From positions 1 through 64,000 of the IMG/VR virus record IMGVR_UViG_3300035698_024626: DNA of 64,000 nucleotides, one strand, 5' to 3'. The notes below the pieces were generated by a model. That model searched no databases and was not told the DNA's origin. It saw nothing but the letters and a program-made list of their open reading frames with translations. Position numbers and translations under genes: made by a program. Each line of letters begins with the position of its first letter. Within the stretch, counting starts at the first letter, position 1. Shown piece by piece: positions 14,377-57,701 of the stretch. The DNA is from a virus.

Positions 14377-15273
14377 TTAATCATCTCCAAAATCGGTTTC
14401 TTCATCAACCAAAATCGGTTCAATGCTCCCGTTCGGAAATTCTTGCGGTTGACGGAAAACTTTCTTAACATCATTGGCGGCAAGTTTAGTTAGTTGAGCA
14501 TATTTCCCCTGACGGTCTCGCTCGTCCTGTGAATGTTGAAGAGTAGCCACAAGAGAAAAAAAAGTCTCTTTCCCACCCCTAAGTTCATCCAAACGATCCT
14601 TACGAGTGGCAGCTAAACTGCTGTAAATCTTTTGTCGTTCTTTTACTAGAGCATCATACCTATCATTAACACTCTTAAGATAGCGATATCTATCTTCTAA
14701 TTGCCGTTGTTGCATAATTCTAAATTTGACAACATCTTTATCTTCATCTGCTTGCTTAGGGTTTTGAACAAACCATTCCTGCAAATCTGCTATTTGTTGT
14801 TGTAATGATCGAACCAAAATGAGTTGCCTATCTACCAAAATACGATGCTTAAGGAAATCATCTATCTGAAAGAACTCACTCAGTACGATATCTTCAAATT
14901 GACAACACAGGTTACCATAATCCTCAATGTATACATCAACTTCATGCGATTCAAATTGTTTGCGAATAGTTTGATAAAGATGTGTCTTCTTGAATTGTCC
15001 CCTGAACCATTGAGCTTTATCGGATTCGTTTAACCCCGGCTGAGGGGTACACAACATGGGAGCATCAGAAATCCCTATCTCGGCTGGTTGACCCGATTTC
15101 TTGATAATCCCCAGACCTCTGCGTCGTTTGCTAATGGTATCGATGTTCCAACGATAATGACATTGATCCAATAGTACTTCCTGGATTCTTTTGTCAGTCC
15201 ATCCTTGCCGCAAACCATCTTCGAATATTTTGATAGCTTGAGGATCATTGGCCAAACGACGGAATTTAGCCAT
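14377..15273 (-). CDS. HTH plus coiled-coil protein, candidate terminase small subunit
   Basis: N-terminal HTH-like GWTDKRIQEVL...IDTISKRRRGLG; long helical oligomerisation region; upstream of TerL on the same strand. Confidence 0.4.
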   Translation of the reverse strand: MAKFRRLANDPQAIKIFEDGLRQGWTDKRIQEVLLDQCHYRWNIDTISKRRRGLGIIKKSGQPAEIGISDAPMLCTPQPGLNESDKAQWFRGQFKKTHLYQTIRKQFESHEVDVYIEDYGNLCCQFEDIVLSEFFQIDDFLKHRILVDRQLILVRSLQQQIADLQEWFVQNPKQADEDKDVVKFRIMQQRQLEDRYRYLKSVNDRYDALVKERQKIYSSLAATRKDRLDELRGGKETFFSLVATLQHSQDERDRQGKYAQLTKLAANDVKKVFRQPQEFPNGSIEPILVDEETDFGDD

Positions 15274-15977: not shown

Positions 15978-16063
15978 TTTTTATACACCGTCCGATAAAA
16001 TCTCCCCCTATAGTACTATACAGAGCCTTTTGGTCAAAAGCGCTCCATCTTTTTATTTTTTCC

Positions 16064-16106: not shown

Positions 16107-16217
16107 AGTTTATGGGGAAGTGGTCTTTTCAGCAGGGGATGTTACTATGGTAGTGCTGGAACTGTGAGTTCTGCTACTATCCAGAAATACATAGAAAACC
16201 AGAAACACAATGACTAA
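16107..16217 (+). pseudogene. tnpA: 3' stump of IS200/IS605 Y1 transposase
   Basis: Translates to SLWGSGLFSRGCYYGSAGTVSSATIQKYIENQKHND*, the characteristic TnpA C-terminus; no start or HUH motif. Confidence 0.75.
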
Positions 16218-17388
16218 CACCAAAGCATTCAAATACAGATTGTATCCAACCAAGAAACAAGAACAAGGTCTACAACAGACTTTGACCACTTGTAGGTTCT
16301 TGTATAACAATGCTTTGGCTCAACGAATTGACACCTACAAAAATACTCAAGAATCAGTCACTTATTGTGACCAAGCAAATACACTTGTAAAACAAAAGAA
16401 CGACTACCAAAAACAAGTCCACTCACAAGTGCTACAAGAATCACTCAAACGTCTTGACACTTCCTTTGGGAACTTCTTTCGTAGAATCAAACAACAGAAG
16501 GCAGGAAAGAAAGTCAAAGCAGGTTTCCCACGTTTCAAGCCAGACCAGCGTTACAATTCGTTCTGTTACCCACAATCAGGTTTTAGATTAACCAACGATA
16601 GTAGGAGAATTACACTCAGTAAGATTGGTGATGTAAGACTCAAATATTCAAGACCAACAGAAGGTAAGATTAAAACTTGTAGAATTGTTCGTGATGTAGA
16701 CCAATGGTTTGTGGTTCTAACTTGTGAGCAAGAAGTTTCTGAGCCACTCAAATCTACTAATCCTACAGTCGGTGTTGATGTGGGTATTAAGACCTTTGCT
16801 TTTCTTTCAGATGGAACGCAGTTTGAGAACCCACGTCATACACGGAACTCAGAAGTTAAGTTAGCACAAACACAACGTAGATTGTCACAGAAAGTAAAAG
16901 GCAGTCAGAACAGAAACAAACAACGACTTGAAGTTGGGAAGGTACATCGTAAAACACGTAGACAACGTGAGGATTTCTTACATAAGTTAAGTAGGGAGTT
17001 AGTAGACAATTACGGTTGTCTTGTGTTTGAGCAGTTAAACATTAAAGGAATGGTTCGTAATCACAAGTTAGCTAAGCATATAAGTGATTGTGCTTGGAGA
17101 AAACTAATTGAGTATACTACATACAAAGCGGAGGAAGCTGGTGTGGAAGTTAGATTAGTTAATCCCAAGAATACAACTCAGATGTGTTCAAGTTGTGGTA
17201 AGATTGTTCCAAAGACTTTAGCAGACAGAACTCATGATTGTTCTCACTGTGGCTTAGTGATGGACAGGGATTTGAATGCTGCTAAGAATATATTAAGTAG
17301 GGTAGGGACTACCCAAAGTTACGCCTATGGAGATTTAACCGCTACTCAAGGACATTGTGTTCTTGAGCAAGTTGAGTCTGTGAAGTAG
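16210..17388 (+). CDS. tnpB: RNA-guided endonuclease TnpB
   Basis: KAFKYRLYPT N-terminus, GFPRFK, RuvC D/E/D (VGVDVG, VFEQL, DRDLNAAKNI), Zn finger CSSC/CSHC. Confidence 0.95.
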   Translation: MTNTKAFKYRLYPTKKQEQGLQQTLTTCRFLYNNALAQRIDTYKNTQESVTYCDQANTLVKQKNDYQKQVHSQVLQESLKRLDTSFGNFFRRIKQQKAGKKVKAGFPRFKPDQRYNSFCYPQSGFRLTNDSRRITLSKIGDVRLKYSRPTEGKIKTCRIVRDVDQWFVVLTCEQEVSEPLKSTNPTVGVDVGIKTFAFLSDGTQFENPRHTRNSEVKLAQTQRRLSQKVKGSQNRNKQRLEVGKVHRKTRRQREDFLHKLSRELVDNYGCLVFEQLNIKGMVRNHKLAKHISDCAWRKLIEYTTYKAEEAGVEVRLVNPKNTTQMCSSCGKIVPKTLADRTHDCSHCGLVMDRDLNAAKNILSRVGTTQSYAYGDLTATQGHCVLEQVESVK

Positions 17389-26060: not shown

Positions 26061-26582
26061 TTAGGCTATATGTCTCCACCACTTGCCACGAGCTATATCC
26101 CCAATAGTGGTGTGACTCACATCAAATAATCCGGCAATACAACGATGCGTAAAACCATCAGCCAGTAATCGTTTAATATTACGGACCTGAGCCTCGAACA
26201 AAATAGAAGTTCCAATTTTAGAACCATAAGCTTTTGTCCCATGATCAATCTTATCTTTTTCATTTTCAACATAAGAGCCCCATCTTAAATTACTAAGATA
26301 ATTATTTGATCTATTACCGTCTAAATGGCGAGTAATTTGACCGGATGGACACAACCCGACAAATGATTCAAGGACCAATCTATGGATTAACTTAGTAGAT
26401 ACAAAACTATTCCTACCATTTCTTAAACCAACTCGCAAATATCCGTCTCGATCAACAGAAGGCTTTAAGATTCTACCAACCCGAGCCCCATGCCCACGAG
26501 CTATCCTCTTAACTCGACCATAATCAGATACTTGATAAATGCCTGGATGACTTACGATATCTTTCCAAGTTTCATCGGTCAT
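26061..26582 (-). CDS. NUMOD4-HNH homing endonuclease with C-terminal HTH
   Basis: ETWKDI...YQVSDYGRVK; HRLVLESF...RHLDGNRSNNYLSNLRW. Confidence 0.9.
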   Translation of the reverse strand: MTDETWKDIVSHPGIYQVSDYGRVKRIARGHGARVGRILKPSVDRDGYLRVGLRNGRNSFVSTKLIHRLVLESFVGLCPSGQITRHLDGNRSNNYLSNLRWGSYVENEKDKIDHGTKAYGSKIGTSILFEAQVRNIKRLLADGFTHRCIAGLFDVSHTTIGDIARGKWWRHIA

Positions 26583-27850: not shown

Positions 27851-29188
27851 GTGACTTTCGGCAGGGCGAGCCCTGCCGCTTCATATTAGTTCAAACTACA
27901 CGGATGTAATTCAAGACCTAATACTTCTTTTTCCTGCTTCTTAGACTGGCACTGAACCGAAGTTCTGCAACCTCCAATCTCCACAGGCGTTTTGCAAAGC
28001 AAACGAGCTTCGCTAAATTTCTGAGTGTCCCTCAGTATTTTTGTTCCTACATTTCTTATATTTACAGCAGCGTTCAAATCTCTATCCATCACTTCACCAC
28101 AATCCAAGCACTTGAACTCTCTATCTTTCAGTGTTAAGTTTTTGTTAATCCATCCACAACCACTACAAGTCTTAGATGATGGTTCAAATCTATCAATCTC
28201 AACAAGTGGTTTACCACTCCATTCTGACTTGTATCGTAGTTGTCTCTTGAACTCAAACCAACCACAATCTGAAACTGCCTTTGATAGACAATGGTTAGAC
28301 ATAATGCCCTTAATGTTCAAATCTTCCATAGCAAATCCTTCATACTTGGCTATTATATGAGCAGTTGCTTTGTGTTGAAAATCTCGTCTGACATTTCTAA
28401 CCTTTCGATGTAGTCTCTGAACTTTGTTACGCTGTTTACTTCTATTGTTACTCTCTTTCTGCTTTCTTGATAATCTTCTCTGTGCTTTCGAGAGTTGTTG
28501 TCCATACTTATTGAGTGTTTTAGGATTTTCTATGACACTCCCATCGCTCATAGTGGCATATGTCTTAATCCCTACATCAATGCCAACCAGTAAGTCTTGC
28601 TTACAAATTGGTTCTTTGACTTTGAGTTCCACATTTACGGCACAATGCCATTGCTCACCATCTTGAGAAATAGTAAGATGTTTTACTTTTCCTTTGATTG
28701 GTCTGTGCTTAACCCACTGAATTTCTCCAATCTTAGGAATGAAAACAAAATGCTTTCCTATTCTAAACTTCTGAGGCACAGCGAAACTGTCGTTTTGCTT
28801 GCCTTTCTTCTTAAACACAGGAAACCGCTTGGTCTTACTGAAACAGTCTTTGAGTGCTCTATCTAATTGACGGGCTACCTGCTGAAGTGATTGACTAAAA
28901 CTCAGTTGAAGAAAATCGTGTTCCTTCTTGAATTGTGGAAGTGAAGTAACCATATCGTGAACAAATACGAACTTCTTTTCGTTTTCGTATTTGTCTTGAT
29001 TTTGTTTAAGAAGAGCATTCCACAAGAAACGAGTATTACCACCGTGCTGTCGTAAGGCAGCAGATTGTTCCTTAGTGGGATAAAGTCTAAACTTGTATGC
29101 TCTTCTAATCTTCACTACCGTCTTTCTCTTTTTGGTCTGCTATGTATTTCTTTACTGTTTCAGCACTGACCACTCCAATAGTAGAGAT
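27851..29188 (-). mobile_element. Non-autonomous IS605-like element with tnpA stump
   Basis: Upstream of tnpB reads ISTIGVVSAETVKKYIADQKEK (TnpA C-terminus); right-end hairpin CGGCAGGGC/GCCCTGCCG then AAAGTCAC. Confidence 0.75.
27886..29115 (-). CDS. tnpB: RNA-guided endonuclease TnpB
   Basis: RAYKFRLYPT, FPVFKKK, RuvC D/E/D (GIDVG, AMEDL, DRDLNAAVNI), CSGC/CLDC. Confidence 0.95.
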   Translation of the reverse strand: MKIRRAYKFRLYPTKEQSAALRQHGGNTRFLWNALLKQNQDKYENEKKFVFVHDMVTSLPQFKKEHDFLQLSFSQSLQQVARQLDRALKDCFSKTKRFPVFKKKGKQNDSFAVPQKFRIGKHFVFIPKIGEIQWVKHRPIKGKVKHLTISQDGEQWHCAVNVELKVKEPICKQDLLVGIDVGIKTYATMSDGSVIENPKTLNKYGQQLSKAQRRLSRKQKESNNRSKQRNKVQRLHRKVRNVRRDFQHKATAHIIAKYEGFAMEDLNIKGIMSNHCLSKAVSDCGWFEFKRQLRYKSEWSGKPLVEIDRFEPSSKTCSGCGWINKNLTLKDREFKCLDCGEVMDRDLNAAVNIRNVGTKILRDTQKFSEARLLCKTPVEIGGCRTSVQCQSKKQEKEVLGLELHPCSLN

Positions 29189-32291: not shown

Positions 32292-32918
32292 CTAATTTTC
32301 ATGGTTCAAGATTTTTTGTATGGTCGATCGACAAACACCATAATTGTGAGCCAATTCCCTTTGACTCAATTTTGAAGCTTTAATTGCGAGGATTTGATCT
32401 GATGTAAATTTTCGACTATATGCAGGTATTTTTTTTTCACATGGATTGGGCACATGACCCCACACTGTTTTACCTCGTAGCGCCAAAGAAATGTTCGGTT
32501 GCGATACACCGTATTTCTTTGCTAACTGAGCCTGATTCATCTGCCCAGTACGATATAATTCACGCATTTCAACTACGTAAACCTCAGTCAATTTGCTTCT
32601 GGGGTGTTTTGAGCCGCGTATACTGCCAAGCCTGATCGTATCATCAGCATTCTCTCTGGATGTACCATATCTTAAATTCTCTGGGCGCGCATTGTTTTTG
32701 TCACCATCAAGATGCCGGCATTGTAAGCCCTTGGGCCTGGGTCCATAGAATGCTAAACAGACGAGCTTATGAACATAATGTTTACTATTCTGACGAACCG
32801 ATACTCTGGGGTAACCTTCTTTATTGTAGTTCCATTTCAAGATATAGCCCCTTAGACCCCAAATGTTCCCATCGGAGTCTGCAAAATAGCCAGGATACTC
32901 AGGAATCGCTTTCTTCAT
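32292..32918 (-). CDS. HNH homing endonuclease with C-terminal HTHs
   Basis: IPEYPGYFADSDGNI, VHKLVCLAFYGPRP...RHLDGDKNNARPENLRYGT. Confidence 0.9.
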   Translation of the reverse strand: MKKAIPEYPGYFADSDGNIWGLRGYILKWNYNKEGYPRVSVRQNSKHYVHKLVCLAFYGPRPKGLQCRHLDGDKNNARPENLRYGTSRENADDTIRLGSIRGSKHPRSKLTEVYVVEMRELYRTGQMNQAQLAKKYGVSQPNISLALRGKTVWGHVPNPCEKKIPAYSRKFTSDQILAIKASKLSQRELAHNYGVCRSTIQKILNHEN

Positions 32919-33330
32919 ATATAATTATACGTTCAAGTCGATCGTTTGTTTTGATTTTTTTTGGTCAGTTGTTGAAAACTACAAGGCGATTGATATGGTG
33001 GTCGGGAAAGTGTCACCCCCCTTTTTTTCTTCCTCCTTAGTCGGCGAAGTGCGAGAAAGAGTGTAAACGAAAAGTTGTAGGTCGTTTGAAAATGGAGCCT
33101 ACTATGTTTCGCACCCCTTACGTTATAGGACCATGTAATGTTATCGGAATCTATTTGTATTATACGCCGCCCCCTCCCACATCCAGGTTATCGGACTACC
33201 ATCCACCAAACCTACTTATAGGACTATCTTGCACAAGGTGAGTTATAGGACCATCGAGCATCCTGAGTTATCGGACTGTATCCTACCTTGCTGGACATTA
33301 TCGGACGAAAAATAAATCTTGGGATTCACC

Positions 33331-33359
33331 TTGACAATCGGCAACAGGGATCATATAAT
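33331..33359 (+). promoter_or_regulatory. Consensus sigma70 early promoter
   Basis: TTGACA-17 bp-TATAAT, perfect match, with A/T-rich sequence upstream. Confidence 0.9.
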
Positions 33360-33400
33360 ACATTGTAGAAACGAGGCTTTTATTATCGGAGGATAGAAAA

Positions 33401-33958
33401 ATGACTATGATACTGGGAAGCGCTGTTATGGTTGTTATCGGGGTTGTTTGGTTTAGGCACATAGCCAAAGACTTATAGGACGACAATGATGAAGACTTTA
33501 TTCGGACTAACAGGAATGGGGTTGGTTATCGGAACCTTGACCGCGATGGGGTTATCAGACCTGTTCGGACGTATGTTATCGGCGATGAGCATCTAGAACC
33601 GAATAACAAAGAGAAAGGTAGGTTATTATGAGACGCTTGCTATTGTTGGTATGCTTGGCTATAGGACCATGCTCTGTATGGGCCGATAACGAGGGAGTAG
33701 GGTTTATAAGCCCGATAGGAGGATATTATCAGGCGTGGAGAAGCAATGGGTAAAGCACGACTTGAAATTCCTAATTATGGGACGGCAACTGGATTCTCGG
33801 ACGTACTAGCTATGGGTTATGGGAGGTTACTTGCACTGACGTTATCGGACAATGAGGGATTCGTGGTTGTTACGTTATCGGACAGAAGCGAGAGAGTTAT
33901 CGGACGTGACGCTCTGACCGGCGAAATTACTATAGGACTTTTAATTAAGGAGCGATAA
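33401..33958 (+). other. Four tiny early ORFs (33401-33478, 33486-33596, 33628-33753, 33746-33958), first three hydrophobic
   Basis: MTMILGSAVMVVIGVVWFRHIAKDL; MMKTLFGLTGMGLVIGTLTAMGLSDLFGRMLSAMSI; MRRLLLLVCLAIGPCSVWADNEG...; each preceded by a purine-rich RBS. Confidence 0.55.
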
Positions 33959-34123
33959 TATGGGATCAATATCGGACATTGAAGCTAGACTGGAAAATTG
34001 GAAGATGCGATCATAATGTTATCGGACGGAGTTGAAACACTGGATTCTCGAACCTCGTCCGATAGCGACAAAGAATGTGGACATTATATTCGGACGCCTA
34101 ATATCGACGACTAGCCCGATAAC

Positions 34124-34164
34124 CAAAAGGAAGTAGGTTCGATTTTATCGGACCTTTTCCTTTG
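34124..34164 (+). terminator. Terminator-like hairpin closing cassette 1
   Basis: AGGTTCGAT-ttt-ATCGGACCT then TTTCCTTT. Confidence 0.6.
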
Positions 34165-34460
34165 CCCCGGCGAAACATTATAGGACGTTCGGCGATTCGG
34201 GATGTTATCGGACCCTTCTCGGTCGGGCATTATCGGACTTGAAACCGTAAGGTTATAGGACTATGCTGGGGGAAAAATTATCGGACGAGGCTGCGTTTAT
34301 CGGACCTGACGTATAATAGCTTACCCTGTGTGTTGTAGGGCATGTTCTGATAATATCGCAACAGGTCCGTTTTACTTAATTATGCGGACCAGGACGTTAC
34401 TTGCCGATAATAGCCGCGATTCTAGTCTAAAAACGCGGAAACTTTTTTCTCACATTTCAC

Positions 34461-34489
34461 TTGACGTTATACGATAACAAAGCTATAAT
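34461..34489 (+). promoter_or_regulatory. Sigma70 early promoter
   Basis: TTGACG-17 bp-TATAAT. Confidence 0.85.
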
Positions 34490-34535
34490 AGAGTATAGAA
34501 TCGAACGATGGATTATCAGACCTAGGAGAAACGCG

Positions 34536-34886
34536 ATGGGTAGGATTATGGGACGAACGGGAAGTCAAGTCTTATCGGACAGCGCCGCTCGTTATCGGCT
34601 GGCGCGTAGTCGGACGGTAAAATGCCAACATTATCGGCACGGTCCGAAAAACTGGGATTGTTGGGTAGTTGGGCCATTTCATAGTCGATATTATGGGACT
34701 ACTGGTTTTGGGACCACCCGAAGTAAGGCTAAAGTGGCACTTGAATACTTACTAGCCACAGAGTTCGGTTTTATCGGGCGACTAATGTTATCGGCAATCG
34801 ATTCCGCCGATAACGTAGGAATCCGTTATGGGGCGTTAGATACTCCGATAACGATACAAGATTTATTGGGACGTGCCGGCGCGTAA
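34536..34886 (+). CDS. Hypothetical early protein
   Basis: AGGAGA RBS then ATG 34536; the track start (TTG 34461) is actually the -35 box. Confidence 0.65.
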   Translation: MGRIMGRTGSQVLSDSAARYRLARSRTVKCQHYRHGPKNWDCWVVGPFHSRYYGTTGFGTTRSKAKVALEYLLATEFGFIGRLMLSAIDSADNVGIRYGALDTPITIQDLLGRAGA

Positions 34887-34895
34887 TATAGGACT

Positions 34896-34930
34896 AAGAA
34901 CCGGGTTCGATTTATCGGACCCTTTTCTTC
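34896..34930 (+). terminator. Terminator-like hairpin closing cassette 2
   Basis: GGGTTCGA-ttta-TCGGACCC then TTTTCTT; homologous to the 34124 hairpin. Confidence 0.6.
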
Positions 34931-35576
34931 GCGCCCATGACGATATTATCGGACCTGTGGGACGGCTGCATTATCGGACCTAAACCAGAGTAGATTTATC
35001 GGGCCTTTGAGCGGCAAGTTTTTATAGGACGTGACGTATAATCATTTGGCCTGTGTGCTCGTATCCACGTTTTTATAAGCCACGACCGAGAAAATCGATC
35101 ACCCTCACAGCCTTGAATCGGAACTATTATAGGACCGGCGGAGAAATATTATCGGACTACAGCCAGTTTTAGTTATCGGACGGAGCTGCCATTATCGGAC
35201 GTGGCTAAGAATCGTTTACTTCGTGTGATAATAACCCTCCATTTGACCAATTAAACGCCTCTTTTGTGTTATAGGGCGCATTTCTTATAGGATGTGGCCA
35301 ATAAAATCGATTTTTTGCCGGTTATAGGACCAAAACGGGCGATATAGGACTAGCATAACCAGTCTTATCGGTCGGTCCGGATAAAGGGTCCGAGAAAATA
35401 GCCCATTCTAGCCTAAAAAACGTGTATAGTTATGGGAATACGCGATTGTGGCGCGTGAACAGCGTTATTATAGGAGCCTAAAAAGGGACGTGTTTCCTAT
35501 AGGACCAGGACGTAGTTTGCCGATAATATCCCGCCTGGCGCTGTCAAAAACGGCGATTTTTCTTTTGTATAACAAT

Positions 35577-35605
35577 TTGACCCTCCCGTATAACTATGGT
35601 ATGAT
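35577..35605 (+). promoter_or_regulatory. Sigma70 early promoter with extended -10
   Basis: TTGACC-17 bp-TATGAT with TGn. Confidence 0.75.
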
Positions 35606-35824
35606 CTTATGATAAGAGAAACTGAGGTTCGATAATAAAAGGCGTTTTCGCGCCCGATTTATCGGACACCCGCCCCACGGGTGTTATGGGACGCAACCGT
35701 TCTGGTTATCGGTCCCACCTTAGTCCGAAAAAAAACTTAGTCTGATAACGCGATCTACTCGTCCTATAATCTGGGGCGGCGTAGTCACGGGTTATAGGAC
35801 GGGGTTCAGTTATGGGAGTCTACC

Positions 35825-36148
35825 ATGAGTGAAACCGATACCATGACCAGTCAGGCAACCGTTGTAGAGTTTGGTGCTGACGATCTGATTCGAGTCGCTA
35901 AGGCTTACGCTGAAGCCAAGCGTATTGTCGATGCCAGTAGTCGGTACGACAATCTCGAAGATGCTGTCGCTGCGCTTACCGAAGCGTGGGAACAGTTGGA
36001 GAGTCAGGCCAATAACGGCGGAAGGTACACTCCGGCTAAGGAGTTGGGGTTTGGGTCTGATAACGCGGCGACCATCGCTGATGCGTTATTGGGACGTAAG
36101 CCGACCGTCGGCGCTACTCGCAAGGCGTTTGCCGCATTGGGCAAGTAG
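35825..36148 (+). CDS. Hypothetical 107 aa helical protein
   Basis: GGGAG RBS; Ala-rich ORF between a structured leader and the candidate large RNA. Confidence 0.75.
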   Translation: MSETDTMTSQATVVEFGADDLIRVAKAYAEAKRIVDASSRYDNLEDAVAALTEAWEQLESQANNGGRYTPAKELGFGSDNAATIADALLGRKPTVGATRKAFAALGK

Positions 36149-36149
36149 T

Positions 36150-37480
36150 CCGCGTGTCTCTCGTACCGCGCTTTGGGTATAGTCACCGCTCCGAGCGCGG
36201 ACCGACAGACATGTTATAGGACCGTCCGGTAACGACGGACGTTATATGGCGCGCTAGACCGATAAGTCGCGCTGGTTCGATCTGTCAGTCGGGCACGAAG
36301 TCCGATAAGTGCGGGGGGGCGATTCGTTATCGCTAGAACCGTCAGTCGCGCAAAGCGTGCGGATTTAGTCAACGGATTATCGGTCTTAGGGTCTATAGTC
36401 TGTATCCGTCCGTGAGCACGTCTAAGCCGCTCATTCCGGGAGGTCGATATAGGCAGAGAGTCCGCGCCTAAGTCGGTGGAAACCGTCTTCGCGAATCATC
36501 TGGGGTAGCGCCTAGTGTGACGGATGTTAGTAGCGTAGTCCGAGCAAGTAACCGATGGTAAAGCGTGCTTTTTTTGACTCCGAAAATCGTCTAAGTAGGC
36601 TATTGGTCTGCCCTTCGCGGGTGGGGGTCGTAGTCAACATTCGTTTTTCCCTATATCGCAAATCGCCGTAGGGATAGGTCGTCAGGCGCGCCGCACGTCA
36701 ATTTCGTCACAACGATTTCACTGAACAATCTACAATCGCTCGACGCCAAATAGCTATGCGGCAAGGGCCGTTGGTTTAGTGGATAGTGTCGGAACTTCTG
36801 TTGTTCGTCTGATGCGACTGGTGTTTACCTGTAGCAAGGTACGTTCTGGTCGGGACGCTGAACGACTACGGCGCAACGGCGAGCGTAAAATCAGGTCAAA
36901 AACCGACTGTCCGGTCTGGTGGCACGCTCCGAAACACTCCGTTGTAAATCAAGACTTCATAGAAACCATCCACGGCGTGCGACTGGCAGTATCAGTCAGG
37001 CTGTGGGTGTAAGTCATATAAACTGTGTGCGCACCGAAAGGTGTGGGAGCAATTGGGTGGCCCGGCTAATAACTGGGGCGCTCAGTTGTCGATTAGGATC
37101 GGTGGGGATTCTAGTCAACTTTTCTGTAGGATGTACGACGATGAAAGCGGTCATACGGCCGCGAATAATCCCGCATCCGAAAGCTATGTTGTCGATACTG
37201 GTGAGACGGGTAGCCCCGCCGTAGCGCCGGGTTCAAGTCCCGGAAAGTCCAAGCCAGTTGCCAAGTATGGGGAAGTTCCCCAAGCGTTATCGACAGCATA
37301 GCCAGGCGCGCCTAGTGCTGATAAAGTCACAAAATTGGGTTTGGCCGACTGGGGAGTCGCAGACCTCTTAGGATGTGCTGGGCGCGTTTGGGTATGCTGT
37401 TAAGTATTAGGAGTGGTACCGAAGTTTCCCTAGTTTTTGAACGTAAGTTCATAATCGAGCGCGGGGTTAGCGTCACAATT
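36150..37480 (+). ncRNA. Candidate giant structured non-coding RNA (~1.3 kb; boundaries approximate)
   Basis: No ORF with a convincing RBS; GC-rich; many nested helices with G-U pairs (37183-37197/37288-37302, 37303-37318/37375-37390, 37049-37059/37079-37089), GNRA loops and a T-arm mimic. Confidence 0.65.
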
Positions 37481-38388
37481 ATCCTTCATATCTGTAGTTA
37501 CAAACTTTAGTTTTCACTCTTTCTTGTACCCCCTAGTTATCACACTACAAAAACTACACCCCTACAAAAACACACTTTAGGGGGTCACCAGAACACTTTC
37601 GGGGCGTTTTAATTAGTCTAGTCTTAGCGTGCATCTGTCCCAGGCGCGCCAAGAGAGAACTGTTCTGTAGCCTTTTTGGTGGTTGGTGCTCTTTTGCTTG
37701 TAGGTGGGGTATGGGGTAGATTGGATAAAGGGGGTTTACAGAGTCGTGAGAGCGGCTTCTGGCACTGCAAACAGACAATCGTCACCAAGTCCGTTTACCC
37801 CGTATATGTGGGATCGTCAACCACTCCGTGGGAATCTAAACCACTTTGTGGGAGTGAAGTACGATAGGGAAAAACACATAGTATCGTCGGATTCCGGTAG
37901 TATTATCTGTCGGGCAACAATACGTATTTCAGGGTACAAAAAATGCGACAAGAAGAGTACGAATATCACCTTGCTCTAAGATGGCACCAACTCAAATGGG
38001 CGGGTTGGGATATAGCCAAGTGGATTAGAGCGGGATGGTGTCCTCAACACGGAATAAGGTTTTCTCGCAAATGTCCCGTTTGCACAGAAATGAAAGACCG
38101 AACGGAAACCGAACAAAGGATGAATGTAAAATGAAACTTCGTAACATCTCTTTCTATAAGAATCCCCTCGATCTTGATATCCGACCGCACTTACCGGCAA
38201 CCAGTCCAATCCTCTATTACATTATTAATAGGAACATTATAGTAGGACATTTTCACAAAAAACACAAAAAACACGAATGGTATCTCTCGCTAGAACCCAA
38301 TGTAAGTATCTCCCCCAGTCTCGTAGTTAGCCTTTACGAACGACTCATATCTTCCTTGTCTTGCTATAAGTTACCATAATCCCGCCTG

Positions 38389-38999: not shown

Positions 39000-41900
39000 A
39001 TGTCAAATCAAAAGGAAGTCAAAATGAAAATCAACAACATAGGGACAGTCTCTACAGATAGTAACCCCGGCGTCGAAACACGGTTCCCTGTCGGAACAAG
39101 AGTGATAGTGCCAAATTGGCCAACAGGCGGAAAAGTAATGGGGCATCACGAAGGTTCTGTGATAGTAGAAGTGTTGCCGATATCATACTGTCCATCACAA
39201 CTCCAACTCGATTATGGACAGTAGTCTACACTCTTTTTTGTAGGGAACGAATTCCAATGATTGATAGATAAAAAATCGTAGTTTTGTGGGATTGGTGGGG
39301 ACAGAAATTTGATGGGTCCACCGGAGATGCAAAATCAGCACGGAAGAAAGTCGGCAGCATGAGCGAAGCTTACGATTTAGTGCACAAAATAAAACTCCGC
39401 TATGCAGACCGGCCCACTTTGGCGTCGGGCAATCTTCTGGCCGTGAAGATAGTGGTCACTCATATCATGTACCCCGCCGAGTAAACTTGTACTCTAAAAG
39501 AAGTAAGCCATCGTTTTAGTCTTTACTCTTTCTTGTAGGGAAAACCATGGAAATCAAATGTACCAACAGCGAACTGGCCACAAAACGTTTTGACGAACTA
39601 TTAATCGGCGATGCATTTCGGTTGCCGTTCGGACACAATCCTATGATTAAAACCGAAAAATGCCAACAAGTTGTCCCAGATGGCGCACCCATATTAAGGA
39701 ATGTCTTCAACCTCGGAAACGGCGGATTTACACGGCTTAGTGACTTGGAACGTAAGTTCATAAAGGAGGACCAACGTGCATTATTGTCAAGTGTGTACTG
39801 ATAAATCGTTTGCACGACAAGGAAGGTGGGGATAAACATAAAAGAAATCCAGCTACCGTGCTATGGAATCTGTGTGACCATCGTTGATGGGAGTGGGAAT
39901 ATCACCCATAGCGGACTAGAAGAAACATGTCCATATTGCGAAGATACGGATTGCTGTTACAGTTGTGACCTATCGGAGGCAGTATGGGATTGGGACGTTC
40001 CCGATCGCCTAAAGTTCAACGGAGCAATTACTGGCATCATGTCTATGATCCTTGCCCACGCCTGTGCTGGAGTGGATATTGAATCACCGGAATACATTGA
40101 AGGTATCGAAACCGCCATCCAGACTAGCAACGACAATCTCTAACAGGTTCATTAGAAGTCGTCTAGACAAGGAAAGTGGGAGTAAAAACATATGGGACAG
40201 GCTGTGGTTGACGGTAAATTAGAGCCTGGAACATATTACATCCGAATTATTTGGTAATCGACGGAACACGTATTTCAGGGTACAAAAATCGCCTGCAACA
40301 ACAAGTGGAGGTAAGGACGATGACCGCTGAAGACTTGGGCACAGCCACTAGGCGACGGGCTATTCTGGATTTGCTGTGGAACTCTCTATCAGCCGACCCA
40401 GAGAACAAAGACCGCGTGCGTACCGGATGGGGCACCAAAAGACAAGAGGGACTCGTGGCGTGCATCGAAAACATCATGGGTGACAAATTTGTTTTCGTGC
40501 TCGAAGATACCATGTTCATTTTTGTCAGCATCCACCACACCCTAGCAGGAGCAATCGCTGCTTTTATCAGACACAATCGTGTAAAAGATGAGCACAATAT
40601 TATTGTGGACAAAGTGGATGATGGTTGGTTCATATATTCACGCAAAGAGCCTGGAATCAAGTGGTCAATATATAAAGAAGAGATACAAGAATGAAATTTG
40701 AAGTTTCAGATATTTTTGCTTAACAAACTAACAGAAAGGACAGAAACATGACTCTTGCTCAAGTTTTCATTATCGGAATGGGTGCTGGTGGACTTTTCAT
40801 CCTAGTCCGCGACATATCGCTTTGCCTAAGTACTAACGCGAAAGGGCAAGTTTTTGGGATTGCGAGGTATATATCCGGGGCTGTAATAGGAGGAATAACG
40901 GGCGTAGCCGTTAACCTTCTTTGGCATCTATAGTCTTAGCAATGAGAATTGACGCTCGATTCAAATAGGAGACTGCCCATGATTGACGACGGAGGACCGG
41001 CGTTTCCGGTGACAGGAACTTGTGGTTACGATCCAGAATATGAACGTAAAATGTCGAGCCGAGCAAAAGAATTGCCTGAACTAACAGGCTTGGAACGGTT
41101 AGGGCTCTTAGGGGTTGTCCACGGGTAAGTACCCGTAGAAACGGCGATGGCCAATCTCCGGTGCTCTCGGCAGGATGTAGAGGCGTATGTTTGGCGCGAG
41201 AAACTACGTGCAGCGGCAGACCGAGAGAGTTATGGCGGGATCACGGCATGATCCTCTGCGCCATGGCCATCGTCATCGAACTGGTTGAATATCGGTACGC
41301 ACAACGCGGTATCCCCGCAGCGCTTGTACGATACCCAACTTGGCGAGATGCCCTCGCCGAATGGGAGCGGTTGACGGAGAAAAGCGATGGAAATTGACGG
41401 GCAAACGATCACGCAGATACGTGATGAACTGCGTAAAGTAAGGCGCGAACGCGACACGCTGGCGGGCCAGCTAGAAGCAGTAGAAGCGGAACGTGACGCT
41501 TTAGGGTTGGACCTGGAAAGGGCGGAAACTGAACTCAAAGGTGTCCAGGCAGATGCCACAGCTCGGCGAAGGTCCCTTGCCGAATGAGAGCGACTGACGG
41601 AGCAAAAGTAATGAGCGCTAAACTTATTGCCACGTTTAAGCACATGAGCATTACACGGTATGGTCGAATCGGCGTAGAGGAAAGCTATACGATCCGTTCG
41701 CAGATTCTCCTCGGCCATATACGGTTTTACAGCCCGTGGGGACAATGGTGTTTCTTTCCCTTTGCAGATACGGTCTGGAGCGAGGACTGTCTTGCGGACG
41801 TGCGGAAGTTCATGTTGGGATTGAAAACATGATGGGAGCGAAAAAACCTAAGAGCGTAGCCGCTCTGCTGGACAACTTGAAGGCGGAGTATGCGGTCGTC

Positions 41901-53456: not shown

Positions 53457-53696
53457 ATGATTAATGTAACTTTAATTACGAACAATGGTGCGGGCGTACC
53501 CGCGAGGATTCCTGTGGTCGAAGGTACGACCCTGGAAAAGTTCTTGGAAGTTTCGTTTGAAGGCGACCCGGATGAGTTCACTATTCGGGTTCGCGCCAAC
53601 GGGGAGACTGTTGAAGTCGAGCAGGATTATGTTCTCCAGGATGGGGATCGCATTTCAATGGCACCTACTAAAATTGATGGTGCAGTAGTACTGTAA
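53457..53696 (+). CDS. Ubiquitin-like beta-grasp protein (pro-form ending KIDG-AVVL)
   Basis: 79 aa; VTLI...IPVVEGTTLEKFL...IRVRANG...DYVLQDGDRISMAPTKIDG matches the MoaD/ThiS/Ubl pattern; GGGAG RBS. Confidence 0.85.
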   Translation: MINVTLITNNGAGVPARIPVVEGTTLEKFLEVSFEGDPDEFTIRVRANGETVEVEQDYVLQDGDRISMAPTKIDGAVVL

Positions 53697-53781
53697 TTTA
53701 TCAAGCTATACTGTAGGTTGATTTAGCCGATGGTATAACTTCGATTAACGAGTTTTAGGGAACCAACAAAAGGAGAAGAAC

Positions 53782-54021
53782 ATGAAGGGTCCAGGAACAA
53801 AAAGTCAGCAAATCCAATCGTTGAGGGACAAGGTTGGCGCTGCCGGTGTGAAAAACGTTGACACTATCGTCAAAGATTATTCGCCAAGCGAAATTGCGTT
53901 GGCGTATAGGCTCTCTCGCAGAAGCACCGCACTTCCCAAGTCAGTTACCAATCTGTTAGGCAACCTTCCTGAAGGTGAAGCCAAGGCAATTCGCGACAAG
54001 CTTTTGGCAGCCAAGGGCTAA
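53782..54021 (+). CDS. Small basic helical protein downstream of the Ubl
   Basis: AAGGAG RBS, 79 aa, Lys-rich; followed by a terminator. Confidence 0.75.
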   Translation: MKGPGTKSQQIQSLRDKVGAAGVKNVDTIVKDYSPSEIALAYRLSRRSTALPKSVTNLLGNLPEGEAKAIRDKLLAAKG

Positions 54022-54044
54022 CGGCTACAACAAGTCAAATTCCC

Positions 54045-54082
54045 AGAGGGGGTGGGGGGAGTATTCCCCCGCCCCTTTCTTT
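54045..54082 (+). terminator. Intrinsic terminator
   Basis: GGGGTGGGGGGA-gta-TTCCCCCGCCCC then TTTCTTT. Confidence 0.7.
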
Positions 54083-54132
54083 ATGGTGCTAAAGCGGGAA
54101 GAAAACCAGAACCTATCCTCAAGGATTTTCAA

Positions 54133-54417
54133 ATGAATCAAATTACTTTGCAACCAACGATTTTCATCAACTATCCGCAGAAAAGCCTGAGAAGAATTGA
54201 GACCTACGGTTATCGTATGTACGACGACGAAGGTCAAACTTATTTCAGTAGGTGGAAGTCTATCCCCGATAATAGCCTGGAGGTTCTGAGACAAGCTCTC
54301 GAAGATGCAGATGAGGTCGCTGGAGACATGTTCAGCTACGTACTAGAACACCAATGCGGAATGAACATAGGCGACGAGTGGTATGATTGGGACGAAATTA
54401 GCCATCTGTTTGAATAG
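54133..54417 (+). CDS. Hypothetical acidic protein
   Basis: ATG after AAGGA; MNQITLQPTIF... Confidence 0.6.
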   Translation: MNQITLQPTIFINYPQKSLRRIETYGYRMYDDEGQTYFSRWKSIPDNSLEVLRQALEDADEVAGDMFSYVLEHQCGMNIGDEWYDWDEISHLFE

Positions 54418-54430
54418 GCAGAAATTCGTT

Positions 54431-55621
54431 ATGAACGAAAAACTAATACAACGTGCTGCGATTAAATACCAGCAGTGGATGGTTGCCGAATCGCATCGCC
54501 CATGCTGTATTTCCAAAAACACAATCGACAACCATCTCGCAACGGTCTCACTCCAAGTGAGCCAAATGCAAACATGGAGCGAACGGTTTTTTCGCGGTCA
54601 ATACCCCCGTGTCACTCACGGTCTCCTCGGCCCAGAAGTATACAAAAACATTGCCACGAATATGATCCCCGCTTTGGGGATCGATGCGGTAAATGGCATC
54701 AACCTCGCAATTAAAACCCTCAAGAAAATAATAAAAAACACAATCTCACCCATCACACTAAGAGGAGCAATCGAGGAAATCACGATCGTCACCAAAGCAT
54801 GGCAAAGGGTTAAATTCAAAGACAACACGCTGGCAGTTCTCATTTCCGATGTCACCTTGTCTGACGAAAACCAAGAGGTAAACTTAGGAAGCTTTTGGAT
54901 ACATTTGAACCTTACTAATCCCAACGAAGAGTTAAGAACCTACTCGGTCGATGAGGTTATGTCGGAAGATGGCAACTACTGCCACCCTCATATAACAAAC
55001 GGTGAACTCTGCGAAGGTGATGGCAAGTATCTGATGCAAGAAGCTCTTAGTCAAGGCCGGTTGGAAGATTACTTTAGAATTGTCGAAGCTATCCTTAGAA
55101 CGTACAACTATAAATCCCCCTACGCAAAACTCGAAGAATGGTATAATCCTTCACATGAAAGCGAATTCTACTGCGAACAATGCGACGAGTGGCGACTTGA
55201 AGAGGATGGGTGTTGGTGCGAAGGGTGTCAAACACAACACTGTGAGTCCTGCGCTGCCGGTGGTTGCTGTATCGACTGTGGCGAATGGAACTGCGACGAG
55301 TGTGGTAAGTATTGTAGCGACTGTGGAGAAAGAGTGTGTCATGATTGTGTAAGTGATTGCGAGGATTGTGGCAATCACCTTTGTTCATCATGTCTGGTTG
55401 GGTGCTCAAACTGTGCAAATTATTACTGTAAACATTGTATAGTGTCCTGTGATGATTGCGGTGACAACATATGCAAAGAATGTCGAATAGAATGCGACGA
55501 GTGTAGGAAAACTCTGTGCCCTGAGTGTGTACAAAAGTGTTGTGATGAATGTGGTCGAGAATTGTGCGATAATTGTATTAAGCAGGATTGTGGCTGTTTA
55601 CTAACAAAAATGGACAAATAA
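54431..55621 (+). CDS. E2 (UBC-fold) conjugating enzyme fused to tandem CxxC Zn-binding tail
   Basis: YCHPHITNGELCEGDG parallels the E2 HPN...C active site; followed by ILRTYN..SPY; 17 CxxC units at the C-terminus. Confidence 0.75.
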   Translation: MNEKLIQRAAIKYQQWMVAESHRPCCISKNTIDNHLATVSLQVSQMQTWSERFFRGQYPRVTHGLLGPEVYKNIATNMIPALGIDAVNGINLAIKTLKKIIKNTISPITLRGAIEEITIVTKAWQRVKFKDNTLAVLISDVTLSDENQEVNLGSFWIHLNLTNPNEELRTYSVDEVMSEDGNYCHPHITNGELCEGDGKYLMQEALSQGRLEDYFRIVEAILRTYNYKSPYAKLEEWYNPSHESEFYCEQCDEWRLEEDGCWCEGCQTQHCESCAAGGCCIDCGEWNCDECGKYCSDCGERVCHDCVSDCEDCGNHLCSSCLVGCSNCANYYCKHCIVSCDDCGDNICKECRIECDECRKTLCPECVQKCCDECGRELCDNCIKQDCGCLLTKMDK

Positions 55622-55626
55622 AATCA

Positions 55627-56379
55627 TCATAAGCGATAATCATGAATTTTTTGGACGAGAGCAAGAAATTCGTCGGGCGTTTGATCAGCCTTCATTTTAT
55701 TCACATCCCTCGTTACCCATTCTAGATTGGTTATATTTGAGGCTAGATCAGGGAACTTAGCTCGTGGAAATTTATGATCTAATGAATCGTTCAACCCCAA
55801 TATGAGATGCTCACCGGTATATGGACATTTCCAATCTTGTGATTCCAACAAGGCCAGTAATGTTTGCCAATAGCCAACCGTTTTCAAATGATAACGAGAC
55901 TTATTCTTGATGTAACAGACCTGGCATAAAACAGCATAATGCATCCTGTAATTTTTCCCACAATAATGGCATAAACCGGCATCTGTCAATGATGCCCTAC
56001 GTTGCTTTTCCCAATTCCTTATTCTCATCAAACAGGATTCACATGATTTTTTACCAGAAGTTTTTCCGCCACATTGACCACACAATCCTTGTCTAATCCA
56101 AGTATCTCGTCGTTGTTTACAATAAGCATTTTTCTGCTCTAAACAACTAGAACAGCGAGTACGCCCGTGCTCAACCTTCTGATTACATTGCACACACTGC
56201 CCTTGGATTTTCCTTTTTTCTATTGCAATAAGTAATTGATGACATCTTTTGTTAGCGCACTTGTCACAATACGCCCCGCCATCTGTTTTAACTCCACATG
56301 AGAGACACAAGTGCTTCTTACGTCTTGCCTGAGAGTATTCTTTTGAGTATTCACGAAATTTCTCTTTAGTCCACGCCAT
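55627..56379 (-). CDS. HNH endonuclease with Cys-rich repeats, inserted antisense
   Basis: CPYTG...SLDHKFPR...NLEWVTRDVNKMK; repeated CxxC...CxxC units; own GGTGTATAAT promoter 7 nt before ATG 56379. Confidence 0.8.
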   Translation of the reverse strand: MAWTKEKFREYSKEYSQARRKKHLCLSCGVKTDGGAYCDKCANKRCHQLLIAIEKRKIQGQCVQCNQKVEHGRTRCSSCLEQKNAYCKQRRDTWIRQGLCGQCGGKTSGKKSCESCLMRIRNWEKQRRASLTDAGLCHYCGKNYRMHYAVLCQVCYIKNKSRYHLKTVGYWQTLLALLESQDWKCPYTGEHLILGLNDSLDHKFPRAKFPDLASNITNLEWVTRDVNKMKADQTPDEFLALVQKIHDYRL

Positions 56380-56423
56380 CGCAAATATTATACACCAACT
56401 CAAACCCTTTTAAGGAGAAAAAG

Positions 56424-57350: not shown

Positions 57351-57701
57351 GACAATCAAGGATTAACCCATGAACAAATCACAACGTTATGTTGGACTGA
57401 CTTACCCTCGTCTTTTAGAGTGGAAAGTAATCCATAGTCTGTGGAAGAAATTCTTGTGTCCCAAACATATCCATCTGTTCGACGAAACCTTATCCTCTGA
57501 ACACACCTTAAACTGTAGTGCTTGTGGATTAGTGGTCCACATTGCCCTTATTGAAACTGAAGAAGAAGCTTGTGCCAGAGCGAAGAAGGGATTATATATA
57601 GCAACTTGGGCAATAAAACAAAGGGTAAGCCTGATGCTACGATAGAAGTAGATATGTCTAGATTTATTTGACCTGACTAGGGAACGGTTAAGGAGAAAAA
57701 A

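Follow-up and report, generated by a model that had tools for sequence, protein, structure and literature searches.

The window analysed here is the whole 64,000-nucleotide stretch (positions 1 to 64,000) of IMG/VR virus record IMGVR_UViG_3300035698_024626, a 76,817-bp record. At about 33 kb, at the point where the coding strand switches, it carries a dense, co-oriented array of the nine-base word TTATNGGAC, interspersed with promoters and small early genes (Table 1). Exact copies of the word numbered 40 across the window, compared to 2.24 +/- 1.54 expected (maximum of 6 in 100 shuffles), and 42 across the whole record, where only 5 fell outside the tract. Exact and one-mismatch copies together gave about 60 that face the same direction within the tract; one-mismatch sites were divided into ~26 on the plus and 14 on the minus strand, and elsewhere occurred at ~0.4 per kb per strand. 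The exact plus-strand sites per 500 bp, counted from 33000, were 7, 4, 8, 6, 6, 3 and 1, with zero from 36500 onward; the tract thus begins abruptly and thins out rightward. Site spacing was irregular (19–34 bp within clusters, mode 25–27), so that the array is not a tandem repeat. The refined word was R-TTAT-[C>A>G, no T]-GGAC-[not A]. Most exact sites (27/35) lay outside plausible ORFs; the eight inside the 70-aa and 116-aa ORFs used all three reading frames, as did the word sites in the 70-aa ORF considered by itself, and the word was also present in two terminator stems (34135–34155 and 34903–34922). These data are in agreement with a first-pass annotation that had described about 37 polarised sites at the strand-switch point, starting abruptly at 33123 and fading rightward, with irregular spacers, and running through ORFs in different frames and through terminators. 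It had also proposed a genome-wide motif count and a search for analogous arrays in relatives; the former placed the word overwhelmingly in the tract, as given above, and the latter found arrays in the relatives.

Table 1. Positions of the array, promoters, early genes and other features in the window.
Feature	Position	Strand	Remarks
Solitary exact site	15990..15998	-	just downstream of a TTGACC-16-TACTAT promoter-like site
Probable direct terminal repeat	33000..37800		approximate borders: left 32973-33085, right 37452-37785
Conserved boundary element GAGAAAGAGTGTA(A/C)ACGAAAAGT	33053..33075	+	~47 bp left of first site
Polar array	33123..36308	+	35 exact TTATNGGAC on +, 2 on -, ~40 one-mismatch sites
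Cluster A	33123..33306	+	6 exact sites and 1 near-site; stops 25 bp before P1
P1, sigma-70-type promoter TTGACA-17-TATAAT	33331..33359	+	12/12
Small early ORFs (36, 41, 70 aa)	33486..33958	+	hydrophobic or signal-like
Terminator-like hairpin	34135..34155	+	word is the 3' stem half
Cluster C	34145..34305	+	7 exact sites; last one 6 nt before TATAAT
P2, TTGACG-17-TATAAT	34461..34489	+	11/12
Conserved 116-aa early protein	34536..34886	+	three exact sites in three frames
Second terminator-like hairpin	34903..34922	+	contains the word
Clusters D and E	34912..35200	+	8 exact sites
P3, TTGACC-17-TATGAT with upstream TG	35577..35605	+	
Conserved 107-aa early protein	35825..36148	+	~60% identical in relatives
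Inverted boundary-element copy	37499..37529	-	weak (81% of 31 nt); near right border

The boundary element was found at the same array-adjacent place in four relatives, with 0, 2, 3 and 5 mismatches to the query core in G004, G017, G002 and G001, respectively, while the DNA around it does not align among these four and the query. Its inverted copy near the right border may be a chance match. The 116-aa early protein gave no match in Pfam or PDB. The solitary site on the minus strand heads a leftward operon whose first gene is an ECF-like sigma factor gene.

The array occupies the left 3.3 kb of a segment of ~4.5–4.8 kb (about 33.0–37.8 kb) whose depth was about twice that of its flanks in four salt-lake metagenome runs (12.3 compared to 5–6.5; 7.7 to 3–4; 7.3–7.7 to 3–4; and ~6 to 3.4–4), as measured by k-mer depth at the level of Logan contigs rather than by read ends. 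Logan contigs broke at 37763–37785 (two runs) and at 37452–37478; in relative G002 the contig's right-hand end corresponds to ~37.7 kb, and a contig end of relative G004 falls ~400 bp inside the array. In the relatives G016, G017 and G018, all circular-type assemblies, the array lies 3–8.5 kb from a contig end. Because of the twofold contig depth and the ends of near-complete relatives' contigs at its borders, the segment is probably a direct terminal repeat bearing three strong sigma-70 early cassettes, and the genome probably ends here. The first-pass annotation had taken the array for a tract that loads proteins in one direction, at a genome end or an origin, and had seen selection on the nucleic acid rather than the protein. 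As applied to a genome end, the general reading gains support from the contig depth, the relatives' contig ends and the frame-independent use of the word; the candidates named for it (small-terminase or pac sites, initiator iterons, and Chi/KOPS-like signals) are not favoured.

Irregular arrays of the same word were also found in unrelated phages (31 loci, compared to 6 for the reversed control word). These phages carry unrelated large terminases (PHROG 2, 38, 979, 5989 and 5653), and the flank preferences of the word were the same among them; neither a tyrosine recombinase in the unrelated array phages nor a phage protein common to the array phages was found. Their arrays occupy gene-poor DNA and use both orientations, with two convergent blocks in G005 and G006, and in the smaller phages they lie 1.4–5 kb from the large terminase gene. 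This proximity, along with the position of our array in what is probably a terminal repeat, immediately to the right of the conserved boundary element, would fit a packaging or end-processing signal for a phage packaging protein, i.e., small-terminase sites, or a concatemer-junction array like cosQ or the SRL/SRR of T7. We regard such a signal as unlikely, since five unrelated TerL families share the word and its flank preferences with no shared phage protein, and since the TerL gene is 22 kb away in this phage and the repeat contains no small terminase. Small-terminase sites of the pac/cos kind are disfavoured because use of the word was not limited to one terminase lineage, with TerL 22 kb off. 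That the sites are origin iterons to which a phage initiator binds is very improbable. The clusters do form direct repeats of 4–7 sites spaced 19–34 bp, and the GC-skew analysis that the earlier annotation had suggested gave a cumulative minimum at 33 kb; but this minimum falls where transcription changes direction, and G005, with all genes on one strand, has no skew inflection at its arrays. There is no adjacent initiator gene, no initiator is common to the array phages, and eight clusters over 3.3 kb are unlike known origins. Neither pac sites nor initiator iterons are likely, given that the word is shared by phages whose terminases and replication genes are unrelated. DnaA boxes (consensus TTATNCACA) were likewise considered and are not supported: the word diverges from the box in its second half (ending in GGAC, not CACA), and no match to DnaA domain IV (Bac_DnaA_C) was found in five array phages.

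Read on the opposite strand, the word is GTCC[G>T,C; never A]ATAA, and this is identical to the arm on the XerC side of dif sites from three bacterial phyla. The arm GTCC[C/G/T]ATAA adjoins the central hexamer in five deltaproteobacterial dif sites (PMC2731167). We surveyed genomes of the three phyla that contain a Bdellovibrionales-labelled MAG, a Deltaproteobacteria-labelled MAG and Neobacillus, and found GTCCNATAA-N6-TTATGNNAA in 56/151, 30/151 and 24/151 of them (110/453 overall), nearly always as a single copy per genome; the reversed control gave ~0–1 per genome set, and none of 61 Pseudomonadota genomes contained the pattern. The variable base agreed in its preference, being G in 87, T in 20, C in 13 and A in none of 120 dif arms, and (complemented) G in 20, T in 11, C in 4 and A in none of the window sites. 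A pyrimidine followed ATAA in 17/20 dif sites (85%) and in 78–87% of phage sites; the base before GTCC agreed only in part (C > T in dif, G ~ C in the phages). A complete core, with two inverted arms 6–8 bp apart, was not found in the window's repeat, where the best candidate had at least three mismatches, and the G002 repeat likewise yielded no complete dif-like core. Two of the unrelated phages, G005 and G010, each have one array site that continues into a complete dif-like core, without an integrase, as TGGTCCGATAA-tccctg-TTATGTCACGC and TGGTCCTATAA-taatga-TAATGTTAACC, and these were the only two matches to the right-arm pattern in ~0.9 Mb. Recognition of the word as the XerC arm of dif is new here; an Xer-type recombinase had not been considered in the first-pass annotation. 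Judged by its sequence, the word is on balance probably an Xer half-site of the XerC-arm type. The match could possibly be a coincidence, because only eight specified bases are involved and it was found by a string search of the literature.

Each of the seven array-bearing relatives that are at least 43% complete encodes exactly one tyrosine recombinase of 297–300 aa (E ~1e-41). Along its whole length the protein aligns to XerD (4e-70) and XerC (1e-67), and it has the catalytic R-K-H-R-H-Y residues. No recombinase gene was seen in the present record, a fragment (46% complete) that ends ~5 kb before the position of the gene in G002. We infer that an Xer-type recombinase is a better candidate for the binder than either the 14377–15273 protein or the HTH-repeat protein put forward earlier. 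Since the word equals one arm of dif, the tract is most likely a docking field for an Xer-type recombinase, and we give about an even chance to its being a polar field of Xer half-sites at a genome end.

The placement of sites around the promoters could be explained otherwise, as an operator or "stoperator" field through which a transcription regulator would repress the sigma-factor operon and all three very strong early promoters, or set the timing of their expression. Cluster A stops 25 bp short of P1, sites at 34297 and 35022 lie 6 nt before TATAAT, one-mismatch sites occur at +12 to +25 of P1 and P2, and the solitary 15990 site falls at about +2 to +10 of a sigma-70-like promoter; site orientation follows transcription, as it likewise does for the stoperators of mycobacteriophage L5. 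We judge an operator field distinctly unlikely, for the fixed spacing from site to TATAAT is absent from the relatives and the other phages, sixty sites are far more than three promoters need, and the arrays of other phages are in gene-poor DNA in both orientations. An Xer protein could itself be the regulator, so that an operator function overlaps with the Xer half-site reading. Action at the RNA level, with UUAUNGGAC repeats on early transcripts being the target of an RNA-binding protein or endoribonuclease, or a sponge, would account for the location of all sites in this phage family on the sense strand of early transcripts, and for use of the word in all frames and in terminator stems. It is highly improbable, as cluster A is upstream of the first promoter at a probable DNA end, in the non-coding DNA of other phages both orientations occur next to each other, and there were no Rfam matches.

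A polar array at a genome end also brings to mind a Chi-like single-stranded DNA signal for host RecBCD/AddAB, which would halt degradation and let the repeats recombine. Host Chi sites are known to cluster in one orientation at the termini of lambdoid phage LLS (20 active and 3 inactive sites) and Pseudomonas phage MD8 (32 and 0), so that there too a word specific to the host is gathered with one polarity at the genome end (PMC12315714). A word specific to a host clade would explain its sharing among unrelated phages, and the two convergent blocks of G005 and G006 are as expected around a cut site. But those 20–32 sites extend over many kb and are G-rich octamers read on single-stranded DNA by RecBCD; known Chi sites are G-rich, 5–8 nt long and lack a central N, while our word is not enriched genome-wide outside the tract, reverse-oriented degenerate sites are also enriched within it (14 compared to ~1.5 expected), and the word is separately identifiable as a dif arm. 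In five arbitrary genomes there was no general enrichment of the word, save for a repeat element in Neobacillus. Chi/KOPS-like signals, as named earlier, are possible and not favoured, and a Chi-like role is improbable.

In the favoured reading, the tract would be a dense, co-oriented field of half-sites for an Xer-family tyrosine recombinase, placed in the 4.5–4.8 kb repeat of a ~160-kb phage and interleaved with its strongest early promoter cassettes. A XerC/D-like recombinase of the relatives' type, or host XerC, would load as monomers on TTATCGGAC, all facing one way. Ordinary recombination would not be expected in the tract, because the window lacks a complete core site (two inverted arms around 6–8 bp). 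Of the actions considered, the likeliest is that the loaded field would hinder DNA translocases from one side only, as an obstacle or brake; the packaging motor, FtsK/SpoIIIE, SMC-type complexes and helicase-nucleases are candidate targets. FtsK is stopped about 5-fold better at the outer face than at the inner face of XerD or Cre monomers bound to half-sites (PMC2800217). The outer faces here point right, so that the field would halt machines travelling leftward to the boundary element and let rightward transcription and DNA entry through. By analogy, a polar barrier or brake can be proposed tentatively. A point against it is that E. coli XerC alone binds its own arm weakly and did not block FtsK (PMC2800217). 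A second action might be pairing of the two repeat copies for cyclisation, and such end pairing seems unlikely. The large phages would have strictly polar arrays inside the terminal repeat and the smaller phages convergent traps around a dif-like core. It is rather doubtful, as a general proposition, that phages of several phyla use Xer-loaded arrays of dif arms as new one-way barriers at the genome end.

Natural arrays of Xer half-sites have, to our knowledge, not been described. The likeness to dif and its XerC-XerD sites lies in the identical arm, in a variable position that is never A and in the pyrimidine that follows ATAA; dif differs in being one 28-bp site of two inverted arms, whereas there are ~60 isolated arms here pointing the same way, and neither a XerD arm nor a 6-bp core was found at this array. 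Among mobile elements with dif-like sites or their own tyrosine recombinase, such as IMEX (for instance CTX-phi), plasmids with cer/psi and P1 with Cre-loxP, the sites serve integration, multimer resolution or circularisation of terminally redundant DNA. These have one complete site and accessory sequences bound by other proteins, and we know of none with dozens of recombinase half-sites. Stoppage of FtsK by half-site monomers is not known to us from any phage context. The in-vitro work with XerD and Cre monomers, done on single sites, gives a physical reason for half-site polarity to matter (PMC2800217). The XerD-binding sites (XDS) of the Bacillus subtilis terminus, which are described as unloading or stalling Smc-ScpAB, are likewise half-site-like Xer sequences that serve without recombination, and an artificial XDS array is stated to stall translocating Smc-ScpAB (PMC11840125). 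The XDS are XerD-arm-like, few and chromosomal, whereas the present array is of XerC-arm type, in ~60 copies, in a phage repeat. With respect to layout, the SRL/SRR arrays of T7 are non-coding repeat fields inside or beside terminal repeats. The left terminal repeat of T5, with pre-early genes, has repeat regions and DnaA boxes (10.1101/866236), and so likewise has a non-coding repeat field in or beside a long terminal repeat. The T5 and T7 repeats differ in using other words and far fewer copies, and their functions are themselves unproven.

If the Xer half-site reading is correct, these phages would have borrowed the universal bacterial housekeeping system Xer/dif in the form of fields of dozens of half-sites, an undescribed use of Xer/dif in place of a single recombination site. 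There would then be a concrete candidate reader for oriented word arrays at phage genome ends, and the conserved XerC/D-like gene of the ~160-kb phages would be linked to a specific DNA target. The tract would add a case from nature to the polar protein roadblocks on DNA that are so far known mainly from Tus-Ter and in-vitro FtsK work. The word would also be a clue to host range, because only hosts with a GTCC-N-ATAA dif arm would fit.

Exact copies of the nine-base word TTATNGGAC (eight fixed bases) numbered 40 in the window, compared to 2.24 +/- 1.54 expected, and 42 in the entire 76,817-bp record, of which 37 lay within 33123-36308 (35 on the + strand and 2 on the - strand). Sites with one mismatch crowded into the same 3.3 kb, where the + strand had about 26 and the - strand 14; the background was about 0.4/kb/strand. 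The exact + sites per 500-bp bin, counted from 33000, ran 7, 4, 8, 6, 6, 3, 1 and then 0, i.e., the onset of the tract is abrupt and it fades rightward; and since the spacing within clusters was irregular (19-34 bp, mode 25-27), the array is not a tandem repeat. Because 27 of the 35 sites fell outside plausible ORFs and the remaining 8 occupied all three reading frames, selection acts upon the DNA. These measurements, including the genome-wide count, bear out the first-pass annotation, which had described a dense one-way array with irregular spacers under selection at the nucleic acid level. Pooling the window phage with two relatives, the extended word was R-TTAT-[C>G,A; T rare]-GGAC-[A disfavoured].

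The sites formed six clusters (2-7 exact sites each) interleaved with three rightward promoters, P1-P3, with short ORFs and terminator-like hairpins between clusters and promoters; the word supplied half of the stem in two hairpins. A role at the RNA level fits poorly, as Rfam searches were without match; tRNA and Rfam searches, including those at relaxed thresholds over 32.8-38.6 kb, gave nothing. A promoter arrangement (site, 6 nt, TATAAT) was rejected because its spacing was not general. The coordinates of these and other features are collected in the table.

Features of the window phage (positions of the window unless indicated)
Feature	Position	Strand or direction	Remarks
Protein, 588 aa	494-2260	-	several HTH/sigma-region-4-like modules and C-terminal Mom-like DNA-modification domain
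Protein, 298 aa	14377-15273	-	adjacent to 180-aa protein; 59-69% identical in relatives (69% in G002); without match
Sigma70_r2-matching protein, 180 aa	15266-15808	-	weak ECF-sigma PDB match; heads leftward operon
IS200/IS605-type TnpB gene	16210-17388	+	within phage genome
HNH endonuclease gene	26061-26582		one of three paralogs
IS200/IS605-type TnpB gene	27886-29115	-	within phage genome
HNH endonuclease gene	32292-32918		paralog
Boundary element, 23 bp	33053-33075		about 47 bp left of first site
P1	33331	rightward	sigma-70-type, 12/12 consensus
P2	34461	rightward	sigma-70-type, 11/12 consensus
Small protein	34536-34886		kept in relatives; without family or solved-structure match
P3	35577	rightward	sigma-70-type
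Small protein	35825-36148		kept in relatives; without family or solved-structure match
GC-rich stretch without ORFs	36150-37800		right third of probable repeat; without Rfam match at relaxed thresholds; no alignment with G002
Inverted copy of boundary element	37499-37529		weak; near right border
Conserved genes	53457-58358		37-79% identity in G001 and G004
HNH endonuclease gene	75033-75572 (record)		paralog, past the window

The source record, taken from IMG/VR, represents a phage genome fragment (46% complete) recovered from salt-lake metagenomes. Its late genes, among them portal and large terminase, occupy 0.5-15.8 kb and point leftward, and the array begins just to the right of the switch in transcription direction. 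The 180-aa and 298-aa proteins may be a pair of phage late-transcription factors. No similar DNA was found among isolated phages, the window TerL shared just 26% identity with terminases of Bacillus phages, and comparisons of TnpB and Gmd gave no clue to the host. We examined relatives for like arrays, as had been proposed at first pass, and found them in three records syntenic with the window phage (G001, G002 and G004; 40-67% amino-acid identity), with the same word at the same place and pointing the same way with respect to the genes on either side; one strand held 55/64 sites in G001, 28/32 in G002 and 5/5 clustered sites in G004. The DNA between the relatives' sites did not align with the window; conservation concerns the word and how densely it occurs rather than any particular site. 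The boundary element was kept in the window, G002, G004 and G017, and was weaker in G001. A 28%-complete fragment, G003, grouped with these by small ORFs common with the window, carried 27/32 sites on one strand, and one-way arrays of the word occurred in four further records, G016-G018 (165-180 kb, 100% complete) and G019 (a 71-kb fragment, 43% complete). The 588-aa protein showed little conservation in G002 (30% over 150 aa); neither it nor its Mom-like domain was present in the unrelated array phages described below.

When IMG/VR contigs were searched with a two-site and then a three-site pattern, word arrays appeared in many contigs; the three-site pattern gave irregular arrays at 31 loci versus 6 for the backward-read word. 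Arrays of an arbitrary word do exist in phages, yet this word is several-fold enriched. In the whole genomes of unrelated phages G005-G010 (42-98 kb, GC 40-59%), nearly all sites lay in a single gene-poor stretch or a few such stretches, in blocks of either orientation and with the flank preferences seen in the window phage. Their large terminases come from different families, no protein family common to these genomes and the window phage was found, and neither BLASTP nor phmmer (eight genomes), nor comparison of array-adjacent ORFs, gave a protein shared by all array phages; hits were either artefacts of translating the word or not universal (MazZ-like, DUF4326 and BCS1-like AAA). Use of the word across unrelated terminase families, with no common protein found, argues against a lineage-specific reader; hence the small terminase and the origin initiator, both named at first pass, are disfavoured. 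A lineage-specific packaging signal is weakened for the same reason, and origin iterons fit poorly; a DnaA reader lost favor when family searches found no DnaA domain IV in five array phages. An operator field serving the early promoters agrees with some local details of sites and promoters, but not with the number of sites nor with the arrays in other phages; any operator activity could be secondary to Xer binding.

A triple-site scan of a genome collection was uninformative, as it returned mostly perfect tandem repeats and unrelated intergenic triplets; its sole result resembling a phage array was L158, a phage-like contig within a Bdellovibrionales-labelled MAG. A second shared word, CCCACC, was dismissed because the enriched k-mers were degenerate copies of the array word. 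In G009, the word occurred in 29-bp tandem units with six 21-bp CAACCCACCCTCTGAAAACAT repeats after them (L266:18140-18844, G009 58140-58844), within a ~3-kb terminal duplication. PF18909 (dATP/dGTP diphosphohydrolase N-terminal, MazZ-like) was present in the phage family (G002 39543-39989) and in the unrelated G005, G006, G008 and G009, a sharing that hints at modified DNA bases.

A literature string search for the word returned mostly primers, together with a tabulation of dif sites that contains GTCCGATAA. There, the XerC-side dif arm of five Deltaproteobacteria is GTCC[C/G/T]ATAA, abutting the central hexamer (PMC2731167), and the reverse complement of the array word is GTCC-N-ATAA. The composite GTCCNATAA-N6-TTATGNNAA was present, nearly always as a single copy, in 56/151, 30/151 and 24/151 genomes of the phyla containing the Bdellovibrionales-labelled MAG, a Deltaproteobacteria-labelled MAG and Neobacillus (Bacillota), and in 0/61 Pseudomonadota; control counts were near zero. 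The variable base was G 87, T 20, C 13 and A 0 in 120 dif arms, and G 20, T 11, C 4 and A 0 in the complemented window sites; a pyrimidine followed ATAA in 17/20 dif sites and 78-87% of phage sites, and the base preceding GTCC agreed only in part. The match rests upon eight fixed bases; the word is, on balance, probably a Xer half-site corresponding to the XerC-side dif arm. No complete core site was found in the window or in the G002 repeat. One array site each in G005 and G010 was extended to a full dif-like core with a TTATGT-type right arm; these were the only two matches to the right-arm pattern in about 0.9 Mb, and the exact word was the left arm in both.

Similar words were seen on bacterial chromosomes. 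Three Bacillaceae loci (L157, L133 and L152, from Fredinandcohnia, Neobacillus and Ornithinibacillus) held dispersed elements with (T/A)TATCGGACA every 21 bp, and Neobacillus had 174 TTATCGGAC copies versus 34 for the control, sharing the core word but with A next; these may be arrays of that half-site on the host side, or coincidence. Ten direct, irregularly spaced copies of a 19-bp iteron, GTTTTATAGGACACCCAAC, lay between two ORFs without Pfam match in Marinomonas phaeophyticola (L156:4548-5093), probably an unrelated system containing the word by chance. In both repeats GGAC is followed by A, and they may be unrelated to the array word.

Copy number of the array region was assessed by mapping Logan contigs from four runs on 27-47 kb, using contig k-mer depth rather than read ends. 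Contigs spanning ~33.0-37.8 kb had about twice the flank depth in all four runs (12.3 vs 5-6.5; 7.7 vs 3-4; 7.3-7.7 vs 3-4; ~6 vs 3.4-4), with contig breaks at 37763-37785 in two runs and 37452-37478 in a third, and left starts at 32973 and 33085. That the ratio held in every sample is better explained by two copies per genome than by a mixture of strains. On its right the G002 contig stops at a point matching ~37.7 kb of the window, the contig of G004 is broken about 400 bp into the array, and a contig end is found 3-8.5 kb away from the array in G016-G018, even though these are self-closing assemblies. The depth, breaks and contig ends together indicate that the segment is probably a direct terminal repeat of ~4.5-4.8 kb, as judged at the contig level, whose left two thirds are filled by the array; in the unrelated G009 an array likewise sits inside the terminal duplication of the contig. 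The inverted copy of the boundary element could hint at an invertible or mobile segment, without accounting for the double depth; it is weak in the window and was not found in relatives. Another reading is a Chi-like signal, for which terminal Chi clusters are a good precedent (PMC12315714); but the word does not resemble known Chi sites and shows no enrichment beyond the tract, within which degenerate sites in reverse orientation are also over-represented.

Each of the adequately complete relatives (G001, G002, G004 and G016-G019) encoded exactly one tyrosine recombinase of 297-300 aa, aligning end-to-end to XerD (4e-70), XerC (1e-67) and the XerD crystal-structure sequence, with catalytic residues kept. 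The G002 gene (16335-17228) is situated about 5 kb past the point matching the end of the window record. No tyrosine recombinase was found in G005-G010. We suppose that the recombinase, phage-encoded in the window phage and host XerC in the recombinase-free phages, would load as monomers all facing the same way; E. coli XerC alone binds weakly (PMC2800217). As such monomers, lacking inverted partners, could not assemble into an ordinary recombination site, a role independent of strand exchange is favored. A half-site-bound monomer of XerD or Cre halts FtsK about 5-fold better from its outer than its inner face (PMC2800217), and XerD at dif-like sites is stated to unload or stall Smc-ScpAB (PMC11840125); these precedents make the polarity meaningful.

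The outer (GGAC) ends face right in the window phage, so that motors moving leftward to the boundary element would be braked amid rising site density, and both transcription running rightward from P1-P3 and DNA entering inward would encounter the permissive side. The motor concerned could be the packaging terminase as it nears the terminal cut, FtsK/SpoIIIE, an SMC-type complex, or a helicase-nuclease on its way into the right-hand repeat copy; the convergent site blocks of G005 and G006 might form a trap around a dif-like core. As a second option, loaded fields may align the two repeat copies in register and aid cyclisation, much as Cre-loxP aids cyclisation of P1. A polar, conserved field of dif-arm words does lie in a segment of double depth, and the relatives do keep an Xer-like gene; by analogy with the FtsK and Smc-ScpAB precedents, the likeliest, though still rather doubtful, function for this field in these phages would be that of a one-way barrier or brake for DNA translocases.
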